Below, in pieces: positions 31 to 10,932 of a DNA stretch of 12,987 bases. The stretch's first letter is position 1. Every line of letters begins with the position of its first letter. Under the pieces are notes generated by a model. That model was not told the origin of the DNA, searched no databases, and worked only from the letters and a program-made list of their open reading frames with translations. Source of the DNA: a virus; UHGV virus genome UHGV-0056732, one strand, 5' to 3'. A program made the translations under genes and the position numbers.

Positions 31-56
31 TTCTCTTAAACCAAGGTTTAGGATTG
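31..56. other. cix/hix/gix-like 26-bp crossover site for the adjacent serine invertase; marks the boundary of an invertible (tail-fibre) segment lying left of the window
   Basis: TTCTCTTAAACC-AA-GGTTTAGGATTG: two 12-bp imperfect inverted half-sites around a central AA, closely resembling the recalled hixL site TTCTTGAAAACCAAGGTTTTTGATAA; overlaps the invertase stop codon (48-50). Confidence 0.55.
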
Positions 57-608
57 AAATGACGACGCCGGAAACTTCTTATAAAGCGTGGAAACAGCCA
101 CATCATAGATGATTGCAACCTGCTTACGGGGGATGCCATTCTCCAGCAATCGCCGCATTTGCTGCCATGTTTCTTCTTGGTATTTAGGCCGACGCCCACC
201 TATACGACCTTCTGCGCGAGCTGCATCAAGTCCAGCGCGTGTACGTTCAACGATAAGCTCACGTTCCATTTCTGCCAGCGCCCCCATTACGTGAAAGAAA
301 AAGCGCCCCATTGGTGTACTGGTGTCGATAGAGTCAGTGAGACTCCGGAAATTAATTCCTCTGTCACGCAGCTCTTCCACCAGCACAACCAAGTGACGCA
401 TGCTGCGCCCAAGACGATCTAACTTCCATACGACCAGGGTGTCACCTCTGGAAAGCATACGCAAAACCTTTTTTAGCCCAGGGCGTTCAGTCTGTTTGCC
501 GCTCGCCTTATCCTCAAAAATTAGCTCACATCCTGCGCTTTCAAGGGCATTTCGTTGCAAAGCAGTGTTTTGTTCATTTGTTGATACGCGTACATAGCCG
601 ATCAGCAT
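48..608 (-). CDS. cin: Serine-recombinase DNA invertase (Cin/Gin/Hin/Pin family), 186 aa
   Basis: ATG at 608; N-terminus MLIGYVRVSTNEQ with catalytic Ser10, resolvase core (TLVVWKLDRLGRS), C-terminal HTH (GIPRKQVAIIYDVAVSTLYKK). Matches the recalled Mu Gin N-terminus and the P1 Cin length; adjacent to a cix-like site. Confidence 0.9.
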   Translation of the reverse strand: MLIGYVRVSTNEQNTALQRNALESAGCELIFEDKASGKQTERPGLKKVLRMLSRGDTLVVWKLDRLGRSMRHLVVLVEELRDRGINFRSLTDSIDTSTPMGRFFFHVMGALAEMERELIVERTRAGLDAARAEGRIGGRRPKYQEETWQQMRRLLENGIPRKQVAIIYDVAVSTLYKKFPASSFQS

Positions 609-729
609 GATTTTTACTCTAATGCGTTGTTCTTATGAGTCTGCGAATTTTAAAGAACAAAGCGTTATGCACAGAAATAACAATCTGAATAGGTTCCTGC
701 TTGATTTTTGTTAGATCCGGGAGGAGCTT

Positions 730-1014
730 ATGCAGATTTTGATTTTTTTAATGTCCATTATTAGTGGAACCTATTTATTTCTTACTGGAGTTAGGCGTGG
801 AGCTTATAAGCCATGTTTTTTACATTGGCTTGAAGCATGGCTGCTTGCCATAAAAGGTGGTTTTGTTGGTTTTTGTCTTGCAGAAGTTCAGTGGGGAAAC
901 TCATTTTTGGATGTGGTTGCTTTTTTGATATGTAGTTGGAATAGCCATTTTGTATTAAGAATAACCAAAATATGGGTTTTTCACTTGATTTACGAATGTA
1001 TTGGCAAATTATGA
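730..1014 (+). CDS. Hypothetical small membrane protein, 94 aa, about three predicted hydrophobic helices
   Basis: ATG at 730 preceded by a strong SD (GGGAGGAG, 5-nt spacer); 94 open codons in visibly AT/T-rich DNA where stops are frequent; W/F/L/I-rich with three hydrophobic segments. No homolog recognised; could still be spurious. Confidence 0.4.
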   Translation: MQILIFLMSIISGTYLFLTGVRRGAYKPCFLHWLEAWLLAIKGGFVGFCLAEVQWGNSFLDVVAFLICSWNSHFVLRITKIWVFHLIYECIGKL

Positions 1015-1027
1015 ACAACCAGATGAG

Positions 1028-1046
1028 AAGTTACTTTGCATACCAT
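1028..1046 (+). promoter_or_regulatory. Candidate P1-type late promoter for the lydA-dar operon (9-bp inverted-repeat element plus TANNNT -10)
   Basis: AAGTTACTT (1028-1036) - TGCA - TACCAT (1041-1046); the same architecture and spacing recurs upstream of lyz (10269-10287). The late-promoter consensus is recalled only approximately. Confidence 0.4.
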
Positions 1047-1074
1047 TACCTCCTGACAACGTAGGAGGGAACTT

Positions 1075-1404
1075 GTGCTTGACACACAGGAATTAGCTCC
1101 AGTTGCTATTGCGCTCCTGCTTTCAGTAATTGGTGGGATAGGCACGTTCCTGATGGATGTCCGAGACGGTCGCCAGTCTGGCAATTTGTTGGGATTGGTT
1201 ACGGAGATCTTTGTTGCAGTGACAGCTGGCGCGGTGGCGTACCTATTGGGGCAACACGAGGGCTGGGAGTTATCAATTACGTACTTAATGGTAACGATAG
1301 CCAGCAATAACGGTCATGAGGTGATTTCAGGGATGAAACGAGTGAATATCGATAGCATTCTGAATGTTCTTACAAGTTTGGTGAAAAAGGGAGGCGGGAA
1401 ATGA
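1075..1404 (+). CDS. lydA: Holin (LydA-like), 109 aa
   Basis: GTG start at 1075 with strong SD AGGAGGG 5 nt upstream; small hydrophobic protein with TM segments (VAIALLLSVIGGIGTFL; IFVAVTAGAVAYLL); first gene of the operon next to cin as in P1; stop overlaps the next start (ATGA). Confidence 0.7.
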   Translation: MLDTQELAPVAIALLLSVIGGIGTFLMDVRDGRQSGNLLGLVTEIFVAVTAGAVAYLLGQHEGWELSITYLMVTIASNNGHEVISGMKRVNIDSILNVLTSLVKKGGGK

Positions 1405-1844
1405 TTGGCTGGGGGGTATGCGTTCTTGCGTTAGCCTTAGCCGATCGCTATTTGCTAAAACGCAAGGACATCACGCATTTAGAACTTGGTGATGTGGAAA
1501 TTAAACCGGGTTTCATCCGGGTGCCGTTCAAATACCGGTCTAAATTCCCGTTTTTGCGCGGCGCAACGGTCAGATATTGGATCCGCGATGTTCAGAAGCC
1601 AACGACAGTGATTGAAGGCGAACAACGTTGTCTGACGTCGGCTGAACAGGGCGAAAACAGTGAATGGTTGTACATACCCACTGAATATATGGGTAAAGGA
1701 GAACGGCTGTGGCATTTCAACGTCATGGTTACGCATGGCGACTCGTTCATTAACCCGTTGTATCGGATTTTCCCTGTTACTCAGCAAATCCGCAGAAGTT
1801 ACGTAATAAATCTCGCACAGGATGTGTCAGATGACGAAAAATAA
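1401..1844 (+). CDS. lydB: LydB-like holin antagonist (antiholin), 147 aa
   Basis: ATG at 1401 overlapping the lydA stop, SD GGGAGG upstream; hydrophobic N-terminus MIGWGVCVLALALA; position and size match P1 lydB as recalled. Confidence 0.65.
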   Translation: MIGWGVCVLALALADRYLLKRKDITHLELGDVEIKPGFIRVPFKYRSKFPFLRGATVRYWIRDVQKPTTVIEGEQRCLTSAEQGENSEWLYIPTEYMGKGERLWHFNVMVTHGDSFINPLYRIFPVTQQIRRSYVINLAQDVSDDEK

Positions 1845-4695: not shown

Positions 4696-7683
4696 ATGAG
4701 CTTAAGCGATCAGGTGGTAATGGCCACCAGCATAGAAACGCTGATCGAGCTGCTAAAGAACCTGCCCGATTATGGGCGGGTTTCGTATGTGGTGACAGCG
4801 AAGGGAGACGAGGTAAAAACAGCGTTTGATATCGTCGATGCCTCAGCTCTTTTGGTATCCAATACTCTGGATGGGAAAATTAATCCAGACTATCCCCAGG
4901 AACTTCAGCCGCGCGACCGGACCCGCGCATCCAGCCTTCTTCAGGTCAACCAGATATCCAAGGATTTGCGTCCTGCCCAGCTTACCGATTCCGGTTTATC
5001 CAGCCATGGCGCGCCAATAATTGGTGAGGACAATGCCGTTGAGTCAGGTAATGGGCGGACCATGGGGATCATTAAAGCCTATCAGGACGGTAATGCGGAT
5101 CGGTATCGGGAGTACCTGATTGAACATGCGACCGAATTCGGCATACGGCCTGAAAAGGTTGAATCAATGACGGCTCCGGTACTGGTGCGCCGCCGGTTAA
5201 CGACGGTTGACCGTGTTCAGTTTGCCAAGGACTCAAATATTTCTGATCTCCAGGAAATGGCAGCCAGTGAAAAGGCTTTTGTTGATGCCGACAGCATAAC
5301 ACCGGCGATGATGGCGCTTTTTAACCCGTCAGAAAGCGGAGATCTGCTTAGCCGCAGTAATGACGCGTTTATTCGCGGATTTATGACGCAAGTTGGTGCC
5401 ACACAGGCGGCTGGCCTTGTAACTGAAGATGGGCGACCAACACGGCAACTTGTTGACCGTATACAAAACGCGATCTTTGCCAAGGCATATAAGGATGCGC
5501 GCCTGGTAAGGATGGTTGCAGAAGAACCTGATCCGGATATGCGTAATGTTCTGACGGCGCTTAATGCGGCAGCCAATGATTTTGTCCAGATGCAGGCTTT
5601 ATCAGGAGAAGCGCACAAGCAGGCTGTGACAACTATTGTTGATGGCATTGAGACAGCGGATAGCCTCGATAAAAAGGCGCTGGCGGCATTGAAAGATGCG
5701 GTAGACCTGGTAAGGCAATCGAAGGAGTCAGGCCAGCATATTACCGATGTTATTGCTCAGGGGGATATGTTCAGCGAAACGGCCCCGGAAGTGAAAGCAC
5801 TCGCGTTGTTCATCGTCGCGAATAACCGTAGCGCGAAGCGTATGGCCACCGCCTTTAAGTTGATGGCTCAACGTATCAATGATGAGTTACAGCACCAGGG
5901 CCAGGCGCTGGGGGATATGTTTGGCGGCGGCGATGTGTCGTTACAGGATATCCTTCGCCAGGTGTCTCAGGAACTGGAAAACGAAGGCATGCAAGGGATA
6001 TCCGGCGGTCTTTTCGAGTCCGTTTCCGGCGGTAGTTACAACGGTGTTGCTCCGTATACCAGTTTGCTATTACATCGGGCATCCGGCATCAAAGACATTA
6101 TTCATCTGATCAGGCTGCTTTCCCGCACAGATCCCCAGGATGAACAGCTTGTACAAGTGCTTGCGCATTTTGTTCGAATGCCTGTTGCCGACGTGAAAAA
6201 ATGGTGCCGATTATTCGGTATCAGCAATTCGTTACTTCGCGGCTTGTTAAATCACGCATCCTCCCTTGGGCGCGATGGCTTTGACGAGATAGCGCAGGCG
6301 ATAAAAAACGGAGATATGCCACCAGCTATTGACTGGTTTTCCATTCGCCCAACCAGGGTGAAAGCATTCCTTAGCGCGGCGCATTCGGCATCACCATTGG
6401 CAGAAATGGTTCAGAGGTTATCGCTCATATTCACAGACCATACCGCGTTGGGTGATCTGACTCTGGACGAGATGAAGGAAGCCTCCATTCAGTGGGCCGA
6501 TCAACAAAATGAGGTTAACTCAGACTTCTTGCCAGCATTCAGGAAGGCCGTTAGTAAAGCGGATGATGCCCGTGGAATTCTGAAGGCATTTAAGGCATTG
6601 CAAAGTCGTGTTAATAAACATGTCGGTGATATCGATGGGGTAACGGCGGAAGGCAGGGATATCCTCAAAGAGCACGGCATAACGCCAGAGTTTATTGATG
6701 AGATCAGGACGGATATGCAGCGTGAGGTCGTATCGTCCCTGCAAATCGTAGCCAGAGCGTTGGCGGATGCTAATCCGAAGAGTGCGGCCATTGTTAACCG
6801 GGTTATTGGTGATATTGAAGCATCGGAGGGCATGGGGGCGCTGAAACTCTTCCTTTCGCGAGCGTTTAATCCTAACGGCAATATTCTCCCTGGCATTATT
6901 GGTGAGGCTAAAAAGTATGTCAGTGAAGAAGAACTTGAGCAGCTTGACCAACTACTTAAGCGATTCTCATATAACCCGCAGACACGCTGGCAAATGAATC
7001 AGCGAAGTATGGGTTCGGTCCACGAGAAAGTGTTATCTGCCATGAACAGTGCGATCGCAAACTCATCCGTATCTGAAGAAAAAGCTCTTGAGTGGGCCGA
7101 CTCTTTTATCACAGAAGAAGTGGAAGAAGCCCGCGCTGGACAGAATGGTGGGATAGACCTGCGCAAGGAACTTGCTGATATTTATCGCCTGACCGGCGGG
7201 AAAATATCGACCTTATCAAAGGTAGTTCACCACCAGGGAAGGGCATATGCAAATCTAAATGGTGTTGTTGCTGTCAATTTGAACGATAAAAATGCAAGTG
7301 CACTGTGGCACGAGCTGGGTCATCATCTTGAGTACAGTAACCCTGGTTTGTTAGAGAAAGCCCGGTCATTCCTGAAGGCCAATGTTGAAGGGGATAAGCC
7401 ATCATTCGTCAATATCGGTGGGCGTGGCAAGCCTGAATGGTGCTTCAGATCTCGATTGAGTAATATTTATATGGCGAAGGTATACCCGCCAGCCTCAGTA
7501 AGTAATTCCGGGAAAATTCGGCAGAAATCACCGACTATTTCCAAAACGTCAGCAACGGAAGTATTCTCTATGGCTCTTCAGTTGTATCATGACAAAGAGG
7601 CCGCTGCCGCATCACTGATGAATGGTGACGGATTGCTGGAACTGTTATTAGGTGTGGCAAAGGAGCTAAATAATGCAGATTAA
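4696..7683 (+). CDS. ddrB: DdrB-like large protein, 995 aa, with an N-terminal ParB/Srx-like motif region and a C-terminal HExxH zinc-metallopeptidase-like motif
   Basis: ATG at 4696; residues about 60-130 carry a ParB-N-like pattern (NPDYPQELQPRDR ... APIIGEDNAVESGNGRTMGI); residues 872-876 are HELGH (nt 7309-7323) followed by H877 and E887; size matches the roughly 108-kDa P1 DdrB as recalled. Confidence 0.65.
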   Translation: MSLSDQVVMATSIETLIELLKNLPDYGRVSYVVTAKGDEVKTAFDIVDASALLVSNTLDGKINPDYPQELQPRDRTRASSLLQVNQISKDLRPAQLTDSGLSSHGAPIIGEDNAVESGNGRTMGIIKAYQDGNADRYREYLIEHATEFGIRPEKVESMTAPVLVRRRLTTVDRVQFAKDSNISDLQEMAASEKAFVDADSITPAMMALFNPSESGDLLSRSNDAFIRGFMTQVGATQAAGLVTEDGRPTRQLVDRIQNAIFAKAYKDARLVRMVAEEPDPDMRNVLTALNAAANDFVQMQALSGEAHKQAVTTIVDGIETADSLDKKALAALKDAVDLVRQSKESGQHITDVIAQGDMFSETAPEVKALALFIVANNRSAKRMATAFKLMAQRINDELQHQGQALGDMFGGGDVSLQDILRQVSQELENEGMQGISGGLFESVSGGSYNGVAPYTSLLLHRASGIKDIIHLIRLLSRTDPQDEQLVQVLAHFVRMPVADVKKWCRLFGISNSLLRGLLNHASSLGRDGFDEIAQAIKNGDMPPAIDWFSIRPTRVKAFLSAAHSASPLAEMVQRLSLIFTDHTALGDLTLDEMKEASIQWADQQNEVNSDFLPAFRKAVSKADDARGILKAFKALQSRVNKHVGDIDGVTAEGRDILKEHGITPEFIDEIRTDMQREVVSSLQIVARALADANPKSAAIVNRVIGDIEASEGMGALKLFLSRAFNPNGNILPGIIGEAKKYVSEEELEQLDQLLKRFSYNPQTRWQMNQRSMGSVHEKVLSAMNSAIANSSVSEEKALEWADSFITEEVEEARAGQNGGIDLRKELADIYRLTGGKISTLSKVVHHQGRAYANLNGVVAVNLNDKNASALWHELGHHLEYSNPGLLEKARSFLKANVEGDKPSFVNIGGRGKPEWCFRSRLSNIYMAKVYPPASVSNSGKIRQKSPTISKTSATEVFSMALQLYHDKEAAAASLMNGDGLLELLLGVAKELNNAD

Positions 7684-7993
7684 AATCGCAGCGCCATTAG
7701 GCGGAGATGCCATTATCGAATTTGATGATAATGAAGAAGTTTCCGGGCGTTTGAGCATTATCTCCGGTGACATTACCGAGGACATGATCGCTGAAGCCAT
7801 AGCTGGGGCAAATCCCAATAGCTATATGGGATTCGTTAACACCCTTGATGCTCCCGCAAGTGATGTTCTCCGAACGCTGCATCTTTACGCTGGCTGGTTT
7901 GTTGATTGGCCAGCAGTAGATGGTGGCGATGAGGATGATGATGACGATGAAGAGGTTTTTAGTGATGAAACAGTAAACCAACTCTTGTATTGA
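7673..7993 (+). CDS. Hypothetical highly acidic protein, 106 aa, translationally coupled to ddrB
   Basis: ATG at 7673 overlapping the ddrB 3' end by 11 nt, SD AAGGAG 7 nt upstream; poly-acidic C-terminus DGGDEDDDDDEEVFSDE; about 27 D/E versus 3-4 K/R. Confidence 0.6.
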   Translation: MQIKIAAPLGGDAIIEFDDNEEVSGRLSIISGDITEDMIAEAIAGANPNSYMGFVNTLDAPASDVLRTLHLYAGWFVDWPAVDGGDEDDDDDEEVFSDETVNQLLY

Positions 7994-8196: not shown

Positions 8197-8484
8197 TTAG
8201 TTTTGAGGCAATGCAACAAAAGTCAGCTCTTGATCTTTGATTAATGCTTTTGTTTGTTTGGATGTAATTCCCACTTTAGTTTTTACATCATTGTGGAGCT
8301 TCTTATACGCTTTTATTTCATCTGCTGTATATCGGAAGCCATTTGCACTGTTACTGGACAGTTGAAGTGCGATTACGTCATCACTGACACCCGCATCGCT
8401 TAGCTTAGCTATGCGGGTAATAGTGTGGCCTGCGCGAGTGTTTGGGGTGGATATTTTGTCTAAGAAATTGTTCAGTTTTTCCAT
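8197..8484 (-). CDS. Hypothetical small protein, 95 aa, possibly HTH DNA-binding, in an AT-rich island
   Basis: ATG at 8484 with SD AGAGG 9 nt upstream; segment HTITRIAKLSDAGVSDDVIALQL resembles a helix-turn-helix; visibly AT-rich flanks; own upstream region separated from the 263-aa gene by a terminator. Confidence 0.55.
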   Translation of the reverse strand: MEKLNNFLDKISTPNTRAGHTITRIAKLSDAGVSDDVIALQLSSNSANGFRYTADEIKAYKKLHNDVKTKVGITSKQTKALIKDQELTFVALPQN

Positions 8485-8706
8485 TGTTTACAACCTCTTA
8501 CTTGAGTTTATTGCCAGTAGAATTGCTACTATTCTTTTGCCTCAACGAATCACAATGTACTGGAATAAGAAACTATGAGCAATACTTACGCTTTGCGAAT
8601 ACAGAAGATGAATAATCAACTTATTACTAAAATGTTAATAATATTATTCTGTTACATAGTGTTCGCTATAACAATCGGGAGTTGAATGCTAATTCAATAA
8701 ATAAAG

Positions 8707-8732
8707 ACCCCGCCAATTGGCGGGTTCTTTTT
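8707..8732 (-). terminator. Rho-independent terminator just downstream of the 263-aa gene; also usable on the plus strand
   Basis: GC stem CCCGCC(8709-8714)/GGCGGG(8719-8724) with 4-nt loop AATT; T-run TTCTTTTT (8725-8732) on plus, GTCTTTATT on minus. Confidence 0.6.
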
Positions 8733-9519
8733 AATCACTTTCCACTTCTCCCGTGGTGTTTTCTTGCAGTTCTGTTAATGCAGCACGACATAGGTTCCGG
8801 GCATTGGCTATAGCCACACTTTTGACTTCATCCGTCATCGTGCAGGTAATGTACTGATCGAGTTCTTCATCGCGGATGATGCTTTTGCCAATCAGAAACT
8901 GTATTTGCCAGAGCAGATCGGCATCCATAATCAGAATTTCTGCCGGGCCTTCAGGGCCAGCCGGGAAGGAAACATAAGACTGTTTGCCCAGGCCGACAAC
9001 TCGACAACTTGCTTCAAGAATTGCGCGCTTGAGGTCTGACTTTATAACGGAAACAGGTTGATTTTCACCAGTGATTACGCCGTTGACATGGAAAGGCATG
9101 TAGCTTGAAATTCGCTCTACTTTCCATACGCCAGCAAGCGATCCTTCATGCAGCACAATGGGGGTAACCGCGAGTTTCATCTCACCATATAACTGCTGGC
9201 AGATAGCTGGATTGCTGAATACATCCAAAGGTTCACACTCAAACAGCGGCGCAATCTGCATGAGGTCCATCATGGTCATCCCTGGGGTACGAGCAGTAAT
9301 GAATCTGCGCATACCAGTATCCATTGCGCTCCAGATTGCTACACCATGCTTTTTGCTCACTTCTTCAGTAAAGCCAAGGTGGCACATGATGGTTTTTTCG
9401 ATAGCCAGATCAGAGATAGAAACCTTTTCGCCTGGCACTCCATCATTATTGACGGTCACTTCGACACTCTGGCCATTACGCAGGCGGTATTGAATTGTTT
9501 TAGTATTTTGTGCTGTCAT
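8731..9519 (-). CDS. Hypothetical protein, 262 aa, unknown function, directly downstream of ssb
   Basis: ATG at 9519 (MTAQNTK...) with SD GAGGAAA 7 nt upstream; the longer ORF to 9639 has no RBS; no terminator seen between ssb and this gene; terminator follows at 8707-8732. No family recognised; hhhhDxD-like ILIMDAD at residues 195-201 is weak, non-diagnostic evidence. Confidence 0.65.
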   Translation of the reverse strand: MTAQNTKTIQYRLRNGQSVEVTVNNDGVPGEKVSISDLAIEKTIMCHLGFTEEVSKKHGVAIWSAMDTGMRRFITARTPGMTMMDLMQIAPLFECEPLDVFSNPAICQQLYGEMKLAVTPIVLHEGSLAGVWKVERISSYMPFHVNGVITGENQPVSVIKSDLKRAILEASCRVVGLGKQSYVSFPAGPEGPAEILIMDADLLWQIQFLIGKSIIRDEELDQYITCTMTDEVKSVAIANARNLCRAALTELQENTTGEVESD

Positions 9520-9716
9520 AGTCTTTCCTCTGCTTAAAACCTGATGTATTGCGCCTTCAGGTGGGTCAGGAATGTTTTCCCACCAGCGAAAGCAATATCT
9601 CGGGGTGTTCTTTTCGTGAAAAGCGCGTGCCATTGCCAACTTTGGCGTTTTTTAGCGAGTTCGTGCTTTTGTTGGCGTTTGGACCACCGCTTTTCTTTCA
9701 GTCGTTTTTTACACAT

Positions 9717-10205
9717 TCAAAACGGAATATCGTCGTCAAAGTCCATTGGAGGTTCGTTATTGGCGTTGCTCTGAGGTTTACCGCCACCGCTGTATTGCTG
9801 GTGGTTTTGAGGTTGGTTTGATTGCCCCCAGCCATTTGAGGACTGTGAATCGTCACGGCGAGCGCCGATCATTTGCATGGTGCCGCCCTGGCTGACGATA
9901 ATTTCCGTCGTGTAACGTTCTACACCGGCGTCATCTGTCCACTTACGGGTTTTAAGTTTCCCTTCGATGTAGACCTGAGAACCTTTTCGTAAATACTCAC
10001 TCGCAATTTCAGCAAGTTTTCCGAACAAAACGACTTTATGCCATTCTGTTTGCTCTTTCTGTTGGCCCGTTTGCTTGTCGCGCCATGATTCATTCGTTGC
10101 GATGCTGAGTCTTCCGACCGCGACGCCATTTGGTATATACCTGATCTCCGGGTCTTGCCCCAGGGTACCAATCAGGATGACTTTGTTTACACCGCGTTGT
10201 GCCAC
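9717..10205 (-). CDS. ssb: Single-stranded DNA-binding protein (SSB), about 162 aa
   Basis: Canonical SSB OB-fold sequence ([20 protein letters not shown] ... [37 protein letters not shown]), Gly/Gln-rich tail and C-terminal [11 protein letters not shown]. Start taken as GTG at 10205 (MAQRGVNKV) by alignment to E. coli SSB; the ORF-track start at 10226 is a TTG. Confidence 0.9.
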
Positions 10206-10224
10206 TTTTCTTACCCAATAAAAC

Positions 10225-10241
10225 AAATTAATTAGAGCAAT
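10225..10241 (-). promoter_or_regulatory. Near-consensus P1 C1-repressor operator in the ssb/lyz divergent control region
   Basis: Minus strand reads ATTGCTCTAATTAATTT, 16 of 17 matches to the recalled P1 C1 operator consensus ATTGCTCTAATAAATTT; lies 20-36 bp upstream of the ssb GTG start. Confidence 0.55.
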
Positions 10242-10268: not shown

Positions 10269-10287
10269 AAGTGATTTGCATTATCCT
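10269..10287 (+). promoter_or_regulatory. Candidate P1-type late promoter for lyz
   Basis: AAGTGATTT (10269-10277) - GCAT - TATCCT (10282-10287); same architecture and spacing as the lydA-upstream element. Confidence 0.4.
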
Positions 10288-10374
10288 GTGCCTTCTAAAG
10301 GGATCGAGTCAGTCGGTATTGGCTGTGAATGGGTGTTTGTCCTGGAGCGTAAAAAATTCGCTTATGAGGTCTTT

Positions 10375-10932
10375 ATGAAGGGAAAAACAGCCGCAGGAGG
10401 CGGTGCAATTTGCGCTATCGCGGTGATGATTACCATCGTGATGGGTAATGGCAATGTGCGAACCAACCAGGCGGGGCTTGAGCTGATTGGTAACGCTGAA
10501 GGTTGCCGACGTGATCCATACATGTGCCCTGCGGGGGTATGGACTGACGGGATCGGTAATACACACGGGGTAACGCCGGGTGTGCGAAAAACCGACCAGC
10601 AAATCGCCGCTGATTGGGAAAAGAATATCCTGATCGCTGAACGCTGTATTAATCAGCACTTCCGGGGCAAAGACATGCCCGATAATGCCTTCAGTGCAAT
10701 GACAAGCGCGGCATTCAATATGGGATGCAATAGCTTACGGACCTACTACAGCAAAGCGCGAGGCATGCGAGTAGAAACGTCCATCCACAAGTGGGCGCAG
10801 AAAGGGGAATGGGTGAATATGTGTAACCATCTCCCTGATTTCGTGAACAGTAACGGCGTGCCCCTGCGAGGTTTAAAGATTCGCCGTGAAAAAGAACGCC
10901 AGCTTTGCCTGACGGGACTGGTCAATGAATAA
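10375..10932 (+). CDS. lyz: SAR endolysin (T4-type lysozyme with N-terminal signal-anchor-release domain), 185 aa
   Basis: ATG at 10375 with GAGG SD; N-terminus MKGKTAAGGGAICAIAVMITIVMGNG is a Gly/Ala-rich weakly hydrophobic SAR helix; Cys13, Cys44, Cys51 with Glu42 and Thr57 reproduce the disulfide-isomerisation arrangement described for P1 Lyz; lysozyme core (NAEGCRRDPYMCPAGVWTDGIGNTHGV). Confidence 0.9.
   Translation: MKGKTAAGGGAICAIAVMITIVMGNGNVRTNQAGLELIGNAEGCRRDPYMCPAGVWTDGIGNTHGVTPGVRKTDQQIAADWEKNILIAERCINQHFRGKDMPDNAFSAMTSAAFNMGCNSLRTYYSKARGMRVETSIHKWAQKGEWVNMCNHLPDFVNSNGVPLRGLKIRREKERQLCLTGLVNE

Follow-up and report, generated by a model that had tools for sequence, protein, structure and literature searches.

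The window analysed here is the whole 12,987-nucleotide stretch of the virus genome UHGV-0056732, in which a separate small coding sequence lies between the divergently transcribed DNA invertase gene cin and the late promoter LPdar of the lydA and lydB genes (Table 1). The original prediction described at positions 730-1014 an open frame of 94 codons with a strong Shine-Dalgarno sequence, situated in an AT-rich patch and encoding a very hydrophobic, Trp- and Phe-rich product with basic residues in the first loop, and each of these observations was confirmed. The GC content is 0.35-0.38 over positions 601-1100, compared with 0.47-0.52 on either side, and the deduced product has a GRAVY index of 0.95, contains 5 Trp and 9 Phe residues and carries R22, R23 and K27 in its first loop. 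In one variant allele the Shine-Dalgarno sequence is replaced by GGGAGGAA. It is moderately unlikely that a stop-free run of this length arises by chance, as had also been proposed: when the cin-lydA interval (609-1074) was shuffled 5000 times with its dinucleotides preserved, 2.2% of the shuffles contained an ORF of at least 94 aa in any of the six frames, and base composition gives a single-frame expectation of about 1e-3. Within the ORF, base usage at the three codon positions showed no significant periodicity (chi-square p = 0.5) and is not counted as evidence. Two antisense ORFs, one of 75 aa (791-1018, minus strand) and one of 105 aa (990-1307, minus strand), overlap lydC and lydA and are taken as by-products of the composition of the coding strand. 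Rfam and tRNA scans of the window returned no hits.

By megablast, positions 600-1100 of the window show 100% identity with two phages, P7 (AF503408 / NC_050152) and RCS47. The P7 record AF503408 labels the coding sequence "lydC; LydC; lysis determinant C; putative holin" (AAQ07503.1), the RCS47 annotation reads "putative lysis determinant LydC", and phage P1 (AF234172) carries at the same place a lydC gene of 93 aa (AAQ14002.1), annotated "holin by homology; 30 pct identical to LydA". According to these annotations and to the alignment of P1 with P7, the small coding sequence between divergent cin and LPdar/lydA is the positional orthologue of P1 lydC. By sequence identity, the ORF at 730-1014 is lydC, a gene already named and annotated in the P1 and P7 genome records AF234172 and AF503408, and the absence of a named P1 gene at this position in the original prediction is thereby superseded. 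The DNA is identical to that of P7 over 600-1100, and hence the protein, the Shine-Dalgarno sequence and the upstream spacer are also those of P7, whereas single nucleotide differences from P7 occur from position 1149 onwards and other cargo is found where P7 has nmpC. The best phage and plasmid records matched the whole window with 98-99% identity over 91-97% of its length. Judged from these alignments, the window is a mosaic P1-like phage-plasmid with a P7-type lydC cassette and is neither P1 nor P7, its cin-lydA interval being the P7-type version. The PGAP pipeline labels the P7-type LydC "hypothetical protein" and the P1-type LydC "phage holin family protein".

Table 1. Features of the cin-lydB region; positions are counted from the first nucleotide of the window.
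Feature	Position	Strand	Description	Basis
cin, DNA invertase	48..608	-	divergent from lydC	ORF, annotation, 96.3% nt identity to P1 cin
cin-lydC divergent intergenic region	609..729	both	121 nt; must hold the lydC promoter and, on the opposite strand, the cin promoter(s)	
Op(lydC), predicted C1 operator	613..629	+	TTTACTCTAATGCGTTG; weak match	P7 annotation
Shine-Dalgarno sequence of lydC	719-726	+	GGGAGGAG; GGAGG core ends 5 nt before the lydC ATG	read from sequence
lydC CDS, P7-type allele	730..1014	+	ATG start, 94 aa, TGA stop at 1012-1014	ORF listing
Late promoter LPdar	1028..1046	+	drives lydA-lydB-dar, downstream of lydC; -22 box AAGTTACTT, -10 TACCAT	P7/P1 annotation, exact pattern match
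lydA, main holin, lydC paralogue	1075..1404	+		Pfam PF16083 30.1 bits (cut-off 28.4), 100% nt identity to P1 lydA, annotation
lydB, LydA antagonist (antiholin)	1401..1844	+		Pfam PF16084 LydB E 8e-104, annotation

The P7-type and P1 LydC proteins share 30% amino acid identity over 73 aa in an ungapped BLASTP alignment (E 5e-11), and the genes about 45% nucleotide identity. The divergence between P1 and P7 starts at the cin start codon (about 608) and near-perfect identity returns at about 1019, a few bases past the lydC stop codon and just upstream of LPdar; lydC and its upstream spacer together form a sharply bounded divergent cassette (609-1019 of the window compared with 2076-2495 of the P1 locus L002). 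Because this extreme divergence at the protein level is confined between flanks that are 96.3% (cin) and 100% (lydA) identical to P1 in nucleotide sequence, the comparison marks lydC as an allelic cassette within a known hypervariable region; the segment comprising lydC, cin, Sv', U', U and S' was described as one of eight hypervariable regions of P1-like phage-plasmids (PMC9603915). Among PLSDB plasmids, the P7-type allele was found in 20 (at least 95% amino acid identity) and is rarer than the P1-type alleles, which are present in about 190; the LPdar/lydA flank is common to 470 records. Further allele classes, with alternative C-termini such as ...KWLVFYAA, occur among the P1-type LydC proteins. 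The two types nevertheless resemble each other: both genes are of nearly the same length, lie between cin and LPdar and are outside the late operon, and in the ungapped alignment helix 1 retains the motif LSI-GG--FL-GV, helix 2 the motif A--GF-G and helix 3 the motif ICS-N. They differ in that the P7-type protein has more Trp and Phe, and its C-terminal helices are far more hydrophobic, with crude insertion energies of 6-7 kcal/mol compared with 11-19 kcal/mol in P1 LydC.

The identity of P7-type and P1 lydC at the first, second and third codon positions is 43/60/31%, with pN of 0.49 and pS of 0.79 (saturated), and this pattern indicates long-term constraint at the protein level in the lydC frame. 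The P7-versus-P1 comparison was used since dN/dS within the P7-type allele is uninformative: all five substitutions found there are non-synonymous (C29Y, I81V, L16F, R23C and D61N) and none is synonymous, so that recent purifying selection cannot be shown within this allele. The ORF is intact, as shown or inferred, in 20 of 20 PLSDB carriers, and one P7-type variant has an in-frame deletion of 9 nt. Two variant plasmids (L003 and L004) show 1 change in the 285-nt ORF, and their 121-nt spacer has 6-7 (Fisher p = 0.003 on the L003 counts, 1/285 versus 6/121). A search for frameshifts or stops in the orthologous lydC intervals found none, and a translation signal in the form of the Shine-Dalgarno sequence is present. 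The reading frame proposed in the original prediction is thus conserved in the orthologous intervals examined, and its hydrophobic product, Shine-Dalgarno sequence and frame conservation support the proposal that a small membrane protein is truly encoded here. The opposite view, that the ORF is a decaying or non-functional paralogue or has arisen by chance in AT-rich DNA, could draw on the exclusively non-synonymous changes within the P7-type allele, on the dispensability of P1 lydC in a CRISPRi study (PMC10695390), on the probability of about 2% for such an ORF in the cin-lydA interval, which is not negligible, and on the failure of the promoter scans described below. It is extremely unlikely in view of the frame-specific conservation with P1 lydC (position 2 > 1 > 3, with pN < pS), the optimal Shine-Dalgarno sequence, an ORF that is intact in every carrier examined and in which the sole deletion is in frame, and the stronger conservation of the ORF than of the adjoining spacer.

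The assignment of the P7-type protein to a holin family was approached with profile methods. LydC matched PHROG 1527 "holin" with E 1.3e-35, a family in which LydA also falls, although this match may be partly circular, as P7 LydC may itself belong to the alignment of that family. As an independent test, we used alignments of P1-type LydC (A3) and of LydA homologues (A4) built from database matches. In hhalign comparisons, P7-type LydC aligned ungapped and collinearly with P1-type LydC (97.1% probability, E 5.4e-11) and, again ungapped and collinearly, over 79 columns with the LydA-only alignment (92.7% probability, E 4.2e-7). Three residues, A40, S69 and N71, are invariant in the joint alignment, and four more (G13, L18, G44 and I67) are nearly so. 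The Pfam model PF16083 (Phage_holin_3_3, "LydA holin") did not match P7-type LydC even at E values up to 10, whereas its cut-off of 28.4 bits is passed by P1 LydC (30.4) as well as by LydA (30.1), and none of the NCBIfam models matched P7-type LydC, P1 LydC or LydA. BLASTP of P7-type LydC against LydA gave no alignment, phmmer against 1.84 billion representatives returned only the protein's own cluster and a repetitive 894-aa artefact, and a word-indexed search of 5.8 billion proteins yielded three near-identical clusters only. In a Foldseek search of viral structures, "LydA holin" proteins ranked first, none of them significantly (best E 0.02 with a threshold of 0.001). From the profile alignments and the predicted fold we conclude that P7-type LydC belongs to the LydA/LydC holin family as a divergent member not recognised in automated annotation; overlooked by Pfam and NCBIfam, this allele is listed as "hypothetical protein" in about 20 RefSeq/GenBank plasmids. 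With LydA, the holin on which lysis of liquid E. coli cultures depends (Bednarek et al. 2022, PMC9025707), P7-type LydC shares the adjacent gene position, the PHROG, the ungapped profile-profile homology and the predicted helix boundaries at an offset of +8. LydA differs from it in an acidic N-terminal extension of 8 residues, a basic KKGGGK tail and its expression from LPdar together with the antagonist LydB.

AlphaFold2 models, both derived from the same mixed alignment, place helices at residues 2-23, 30-54, 58-70 and 72-93 of P7-type LydC (pLDDT 84.9) and at 2-30, 38-62, 66-78 and 80-106 of LydA (pLDDT 87.5), where they coincide with those of LydC at a register of +8. Both proteins are predicted to have two long hydrophobic helices linked through a short loop that contains Arg, followed by a short helix with S-x-N at its end and by a C-terminal helix. 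In hydropathy analysis of P7-type LydC only helix 1 is unambiguously membrane-spanning, helix 2 is marginal as a span with E35 and K42 inside it, and helices 3 and 4 are hydrophobic but broken by polar residues; on the crude insertion-energy scale these last two helices are much more hydrophobic than their equivalents in both P1 LydC and LydA. The last 18 residues, RITKIWVFHLIYECIGKL, have a net charge of about +2 and are mostly hydrophobic. Typical holins have a hydrophilic, positively charged C-terminal end. The three-helix membrane topology originally proposed is uncertain. Only helix 1 is unambiguous as a span, and P1 LydC and LydA have been described as sharing features of class II holins, with two transmembrane helices predicted (Bednarek et al. 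2022, PMC9025707). The "third helix" of that proposal is the unusually hydrophobic C-terminal part of P7-type LydC, which may span the membrane.

With regard to regulation, the placement of lydC outside the late promoter and its separate expression, both proposed originally, agree with the position of LPdar downstream of the lydC stop codon and with the literature, in which P1 lydC is treated as monocistronic and is assigned a predicted early promoter of its own, in contrast to lydA, lydB, lyz and lydD, which are late genes (PMC9025707). The blocks of the cin-lydC spacer that are conserved with P1 coincide with the annotated cin promoter elements of P1 on the other strand. A sigma-70 scan of positions 500-1150 gave 0 sites at the scan threshold, and a looser scan yielded nothing better than poor candidates such as TTGATA-N19-CATGAT (ending at 611) and TTTACT-N15-TATGAG (ending at 639), none of which is proposed here as the lydC promoter. 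Transcription of lydC by readthrough from the tail-fibre operon via antisense cin is unlikely from the gene layout, in which the convergent U' and Sv' genes intervene. The operator Op(lydC) matches 11 of 17 positions of the C1 consensus ATTGCTCTAATAAATTT. Two other sites within 200 bp are equally good, and 25 sites in the window reach at least 11/17, while the ssb operator reaches 16/17; a search for the C1 consensus with up to 3 mismatches found only the ssb operator and missed Op(lydC). Carriers of the P7-type allele vary more at Op(lydC) than anywhere else in the spacer, with TTTACTCTAATGCGTTG changed to TTTTCTCCTATGCGTTG in L003 and L004 (1502-1518), where the downstream ORF has 1 change. 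With so weak a match, and with changes to the operator core in two natural variants, repression of lydC by C1 is unproven.

Expression in the lysogen, which had been suggested as a possibility, was not supported by our analysis, with a C1 operator annotated upstream of the gene in P7 and with cloned P1 lydC being toxic or lethal to E. coli (PMC9025707); because of this lethality of the P1 homologue, substantial expression in a lysogen is unlikely, although the weak operator match leaves some expression conceivable. This also bears on the idea, put forward in the original prediction, that the product is a lysogen-expressed membrane protein acting in superinfection exclusion or immunity. The position of lydC outside LPdar, the 11/17 operator with a core altered in two natural variants, the location in a hypervariable region beside host-range determinants (PMC9603915) and the AT-rich composition, which suggests horizontal acquisition, would be compatible with such a role. 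We consider it very improbable nonetheless, since the hhalign comparisons relate the protein to holins and the P1 homologue, lethal on expression, contributes to lysis (PMC9025707). Moreover, no PADLOC defence model was matched, no constitutive sigma-70 promoter was recognisable in the scan of 500-1150, and the protein has neither homology to any known exclusion protein nor homologues other than holins; nothing in the data points to exclusion or immunity. Lysis timing, another of the roles originally listed, agrees with what has been reported for the P1 homologue (PMC9025707).

The best explanation of the locus, to which we assign a probability of about 0.79, is that 730-1014 is the P7-type allele of lydC and that its product, a small protein of the inner membrane, belongs to the LydA/LydC holins and has an accessory part in lysis. 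In P1, a frameshift in lydC delays lysis in both E. coli and Enterobacter cloacae, and the authors of that work regarded LydC as an accessory canonical holin, possibly also a timing regulator, that acts in concert with the holin LydA, the pinholin LydD and the SAR-endolysin Lyz (PMC9025707). By homology and position, the mechanism of P7-type LydC is most likely the same as that of P1 LydC. Transcription would start at a promoter of the gene's own within the 121 nt between cin and lydC and would be independent of the Lpa-dependent LPdar, probably preceding it; the protein would accumulate in the cytoplasmic membrane and, at the end of the lytic cycle, may add to the LydA/LydD-dependent permeabilisation of the membrane or tune its timing. 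Weighing against this explanation are the negative results of PF16083, of BLASTP with LydA and of phmmer, the possible circularity of the PHROG match, the mixed alignment common to both AlphaFold2 models, a C-terminal part that is hydrophobic and weakly basic where LydA and typical holins have a basic tail, the purely non-synonymous changes within the allele and the lack of a convincing promoter or operator in the scans.

An alternative is that P7-type LydC serves mainly as a regulator of lysis timing and not as a pore-former, that is, as an antiholin-like or dominant-negative partner of LydA which is made early and sets the threshold at which LydA triggers. We regard this as possible but unlikely. 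It would account for the slight acceleration of lysis upon loss of lydC in E. coli in the P1 lyz::R background, where lyz is replaced by lambda R, and for the failure of a P1 lydA lydD mutant to form plaques with LydC alone, and the same authors suggested a timing role in which early expression of lydC presets the LydA/LydD balance (PMC9025707). The location of lydC outside the late operon, the lack of a strongly basic C-terminal tail in the P7 allele and the charged residues E35 and K42 inside helix 2 would fit such a regulator as well. However, cloned P1 lydC is itself lethal, loss of lydC in the wild-type background delays lysis and does not accelerate it, and canonical holin action was concluded for the P1 protein (PMC9025707). 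In addition, LydA is 100% identical between P1 and the window and LydC only 30%, which is hard to reconcile with a tight, sequence-specific LydA-LydC complex unless this is formed via the few invariant residues A40, S69 and N71. The identity of LydA and LydB, combined with 30% identity of LydC, suggests that extensive sequence-specific contacts with either of them are not required by LydC.

It is also conceivable, though improbable, that the P7-type protein is a functionally shifted allele which acts in the membrane as a modulator or inhibitor of LydA or is made at a low level in the lysogen. Compatible with this are the hydrophobic, Trp-rich C-terminal half without a strongly basic tail, the lack of relatives beyond its own cluster among 1.84 billion representatives and the doubtful operator. 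On this reading, host- or condition-dependent selection on lysis timing might maintain both of the strongly diverged lydC alleles in the population. The discovery value of the locus is small, as the gene has long been named and its P1 homologue has been genetically dissected. The P7-type LydC is, however, only 30% identical to the tested P1 protein and yet is paired with identical LydA and LydB, and the allele pair thus offers a clean way to ask what share LydC has in lysis timing and whether sequence-specific contact with LydA is needed.

Several further features were observed in the window and in the plasmids compared with it. In L004 (NZ_CP051361.1, the P1-like Salmonella Heidelberg plasmid p28322-3, which carries P7-type lydC), the neighbour of cin at locus positions 1-480 is annotated as the SPI-1 type III effector SopE, a gene that sits where the invertible tail-fibre segment normally adjoins cin. 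A variable cargo slot on the minus strand of the window (8197-9639), between an odaA/iddB-like ORF (7673..7993) and ssb, holds IS1 in P1 and the porin gene nmpC in P7. The window's own cargo at this slot comprises an ORF of 95 aa (8197..8484), which matched no entry in PHROG, Pfam or PADLOC, and one of 301 aa (8731..9639), for which Pfam and PADLOC gave no match and which matched PHROG 2326, a family of unknown function (E 2e-147). Directly upstream of ssb (9717..10226, minus strand), the near-perfect C1 operator ATTGCTCTAATTAATTT (16/17) is located at 10225-10241 on the minus strand, and a late-promoter-like site with 2 mismatches to the LPdar pattern is found at 10269-10287 on the plus strand before the lysozyme gene lyz (ORF 10276..10932). 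Placed back to back, the ssb operator and the lyz late-promoter-like site form a compact divergent early/late control region, in agreement with the Op(ssb) and LPlyz annotation of P7.
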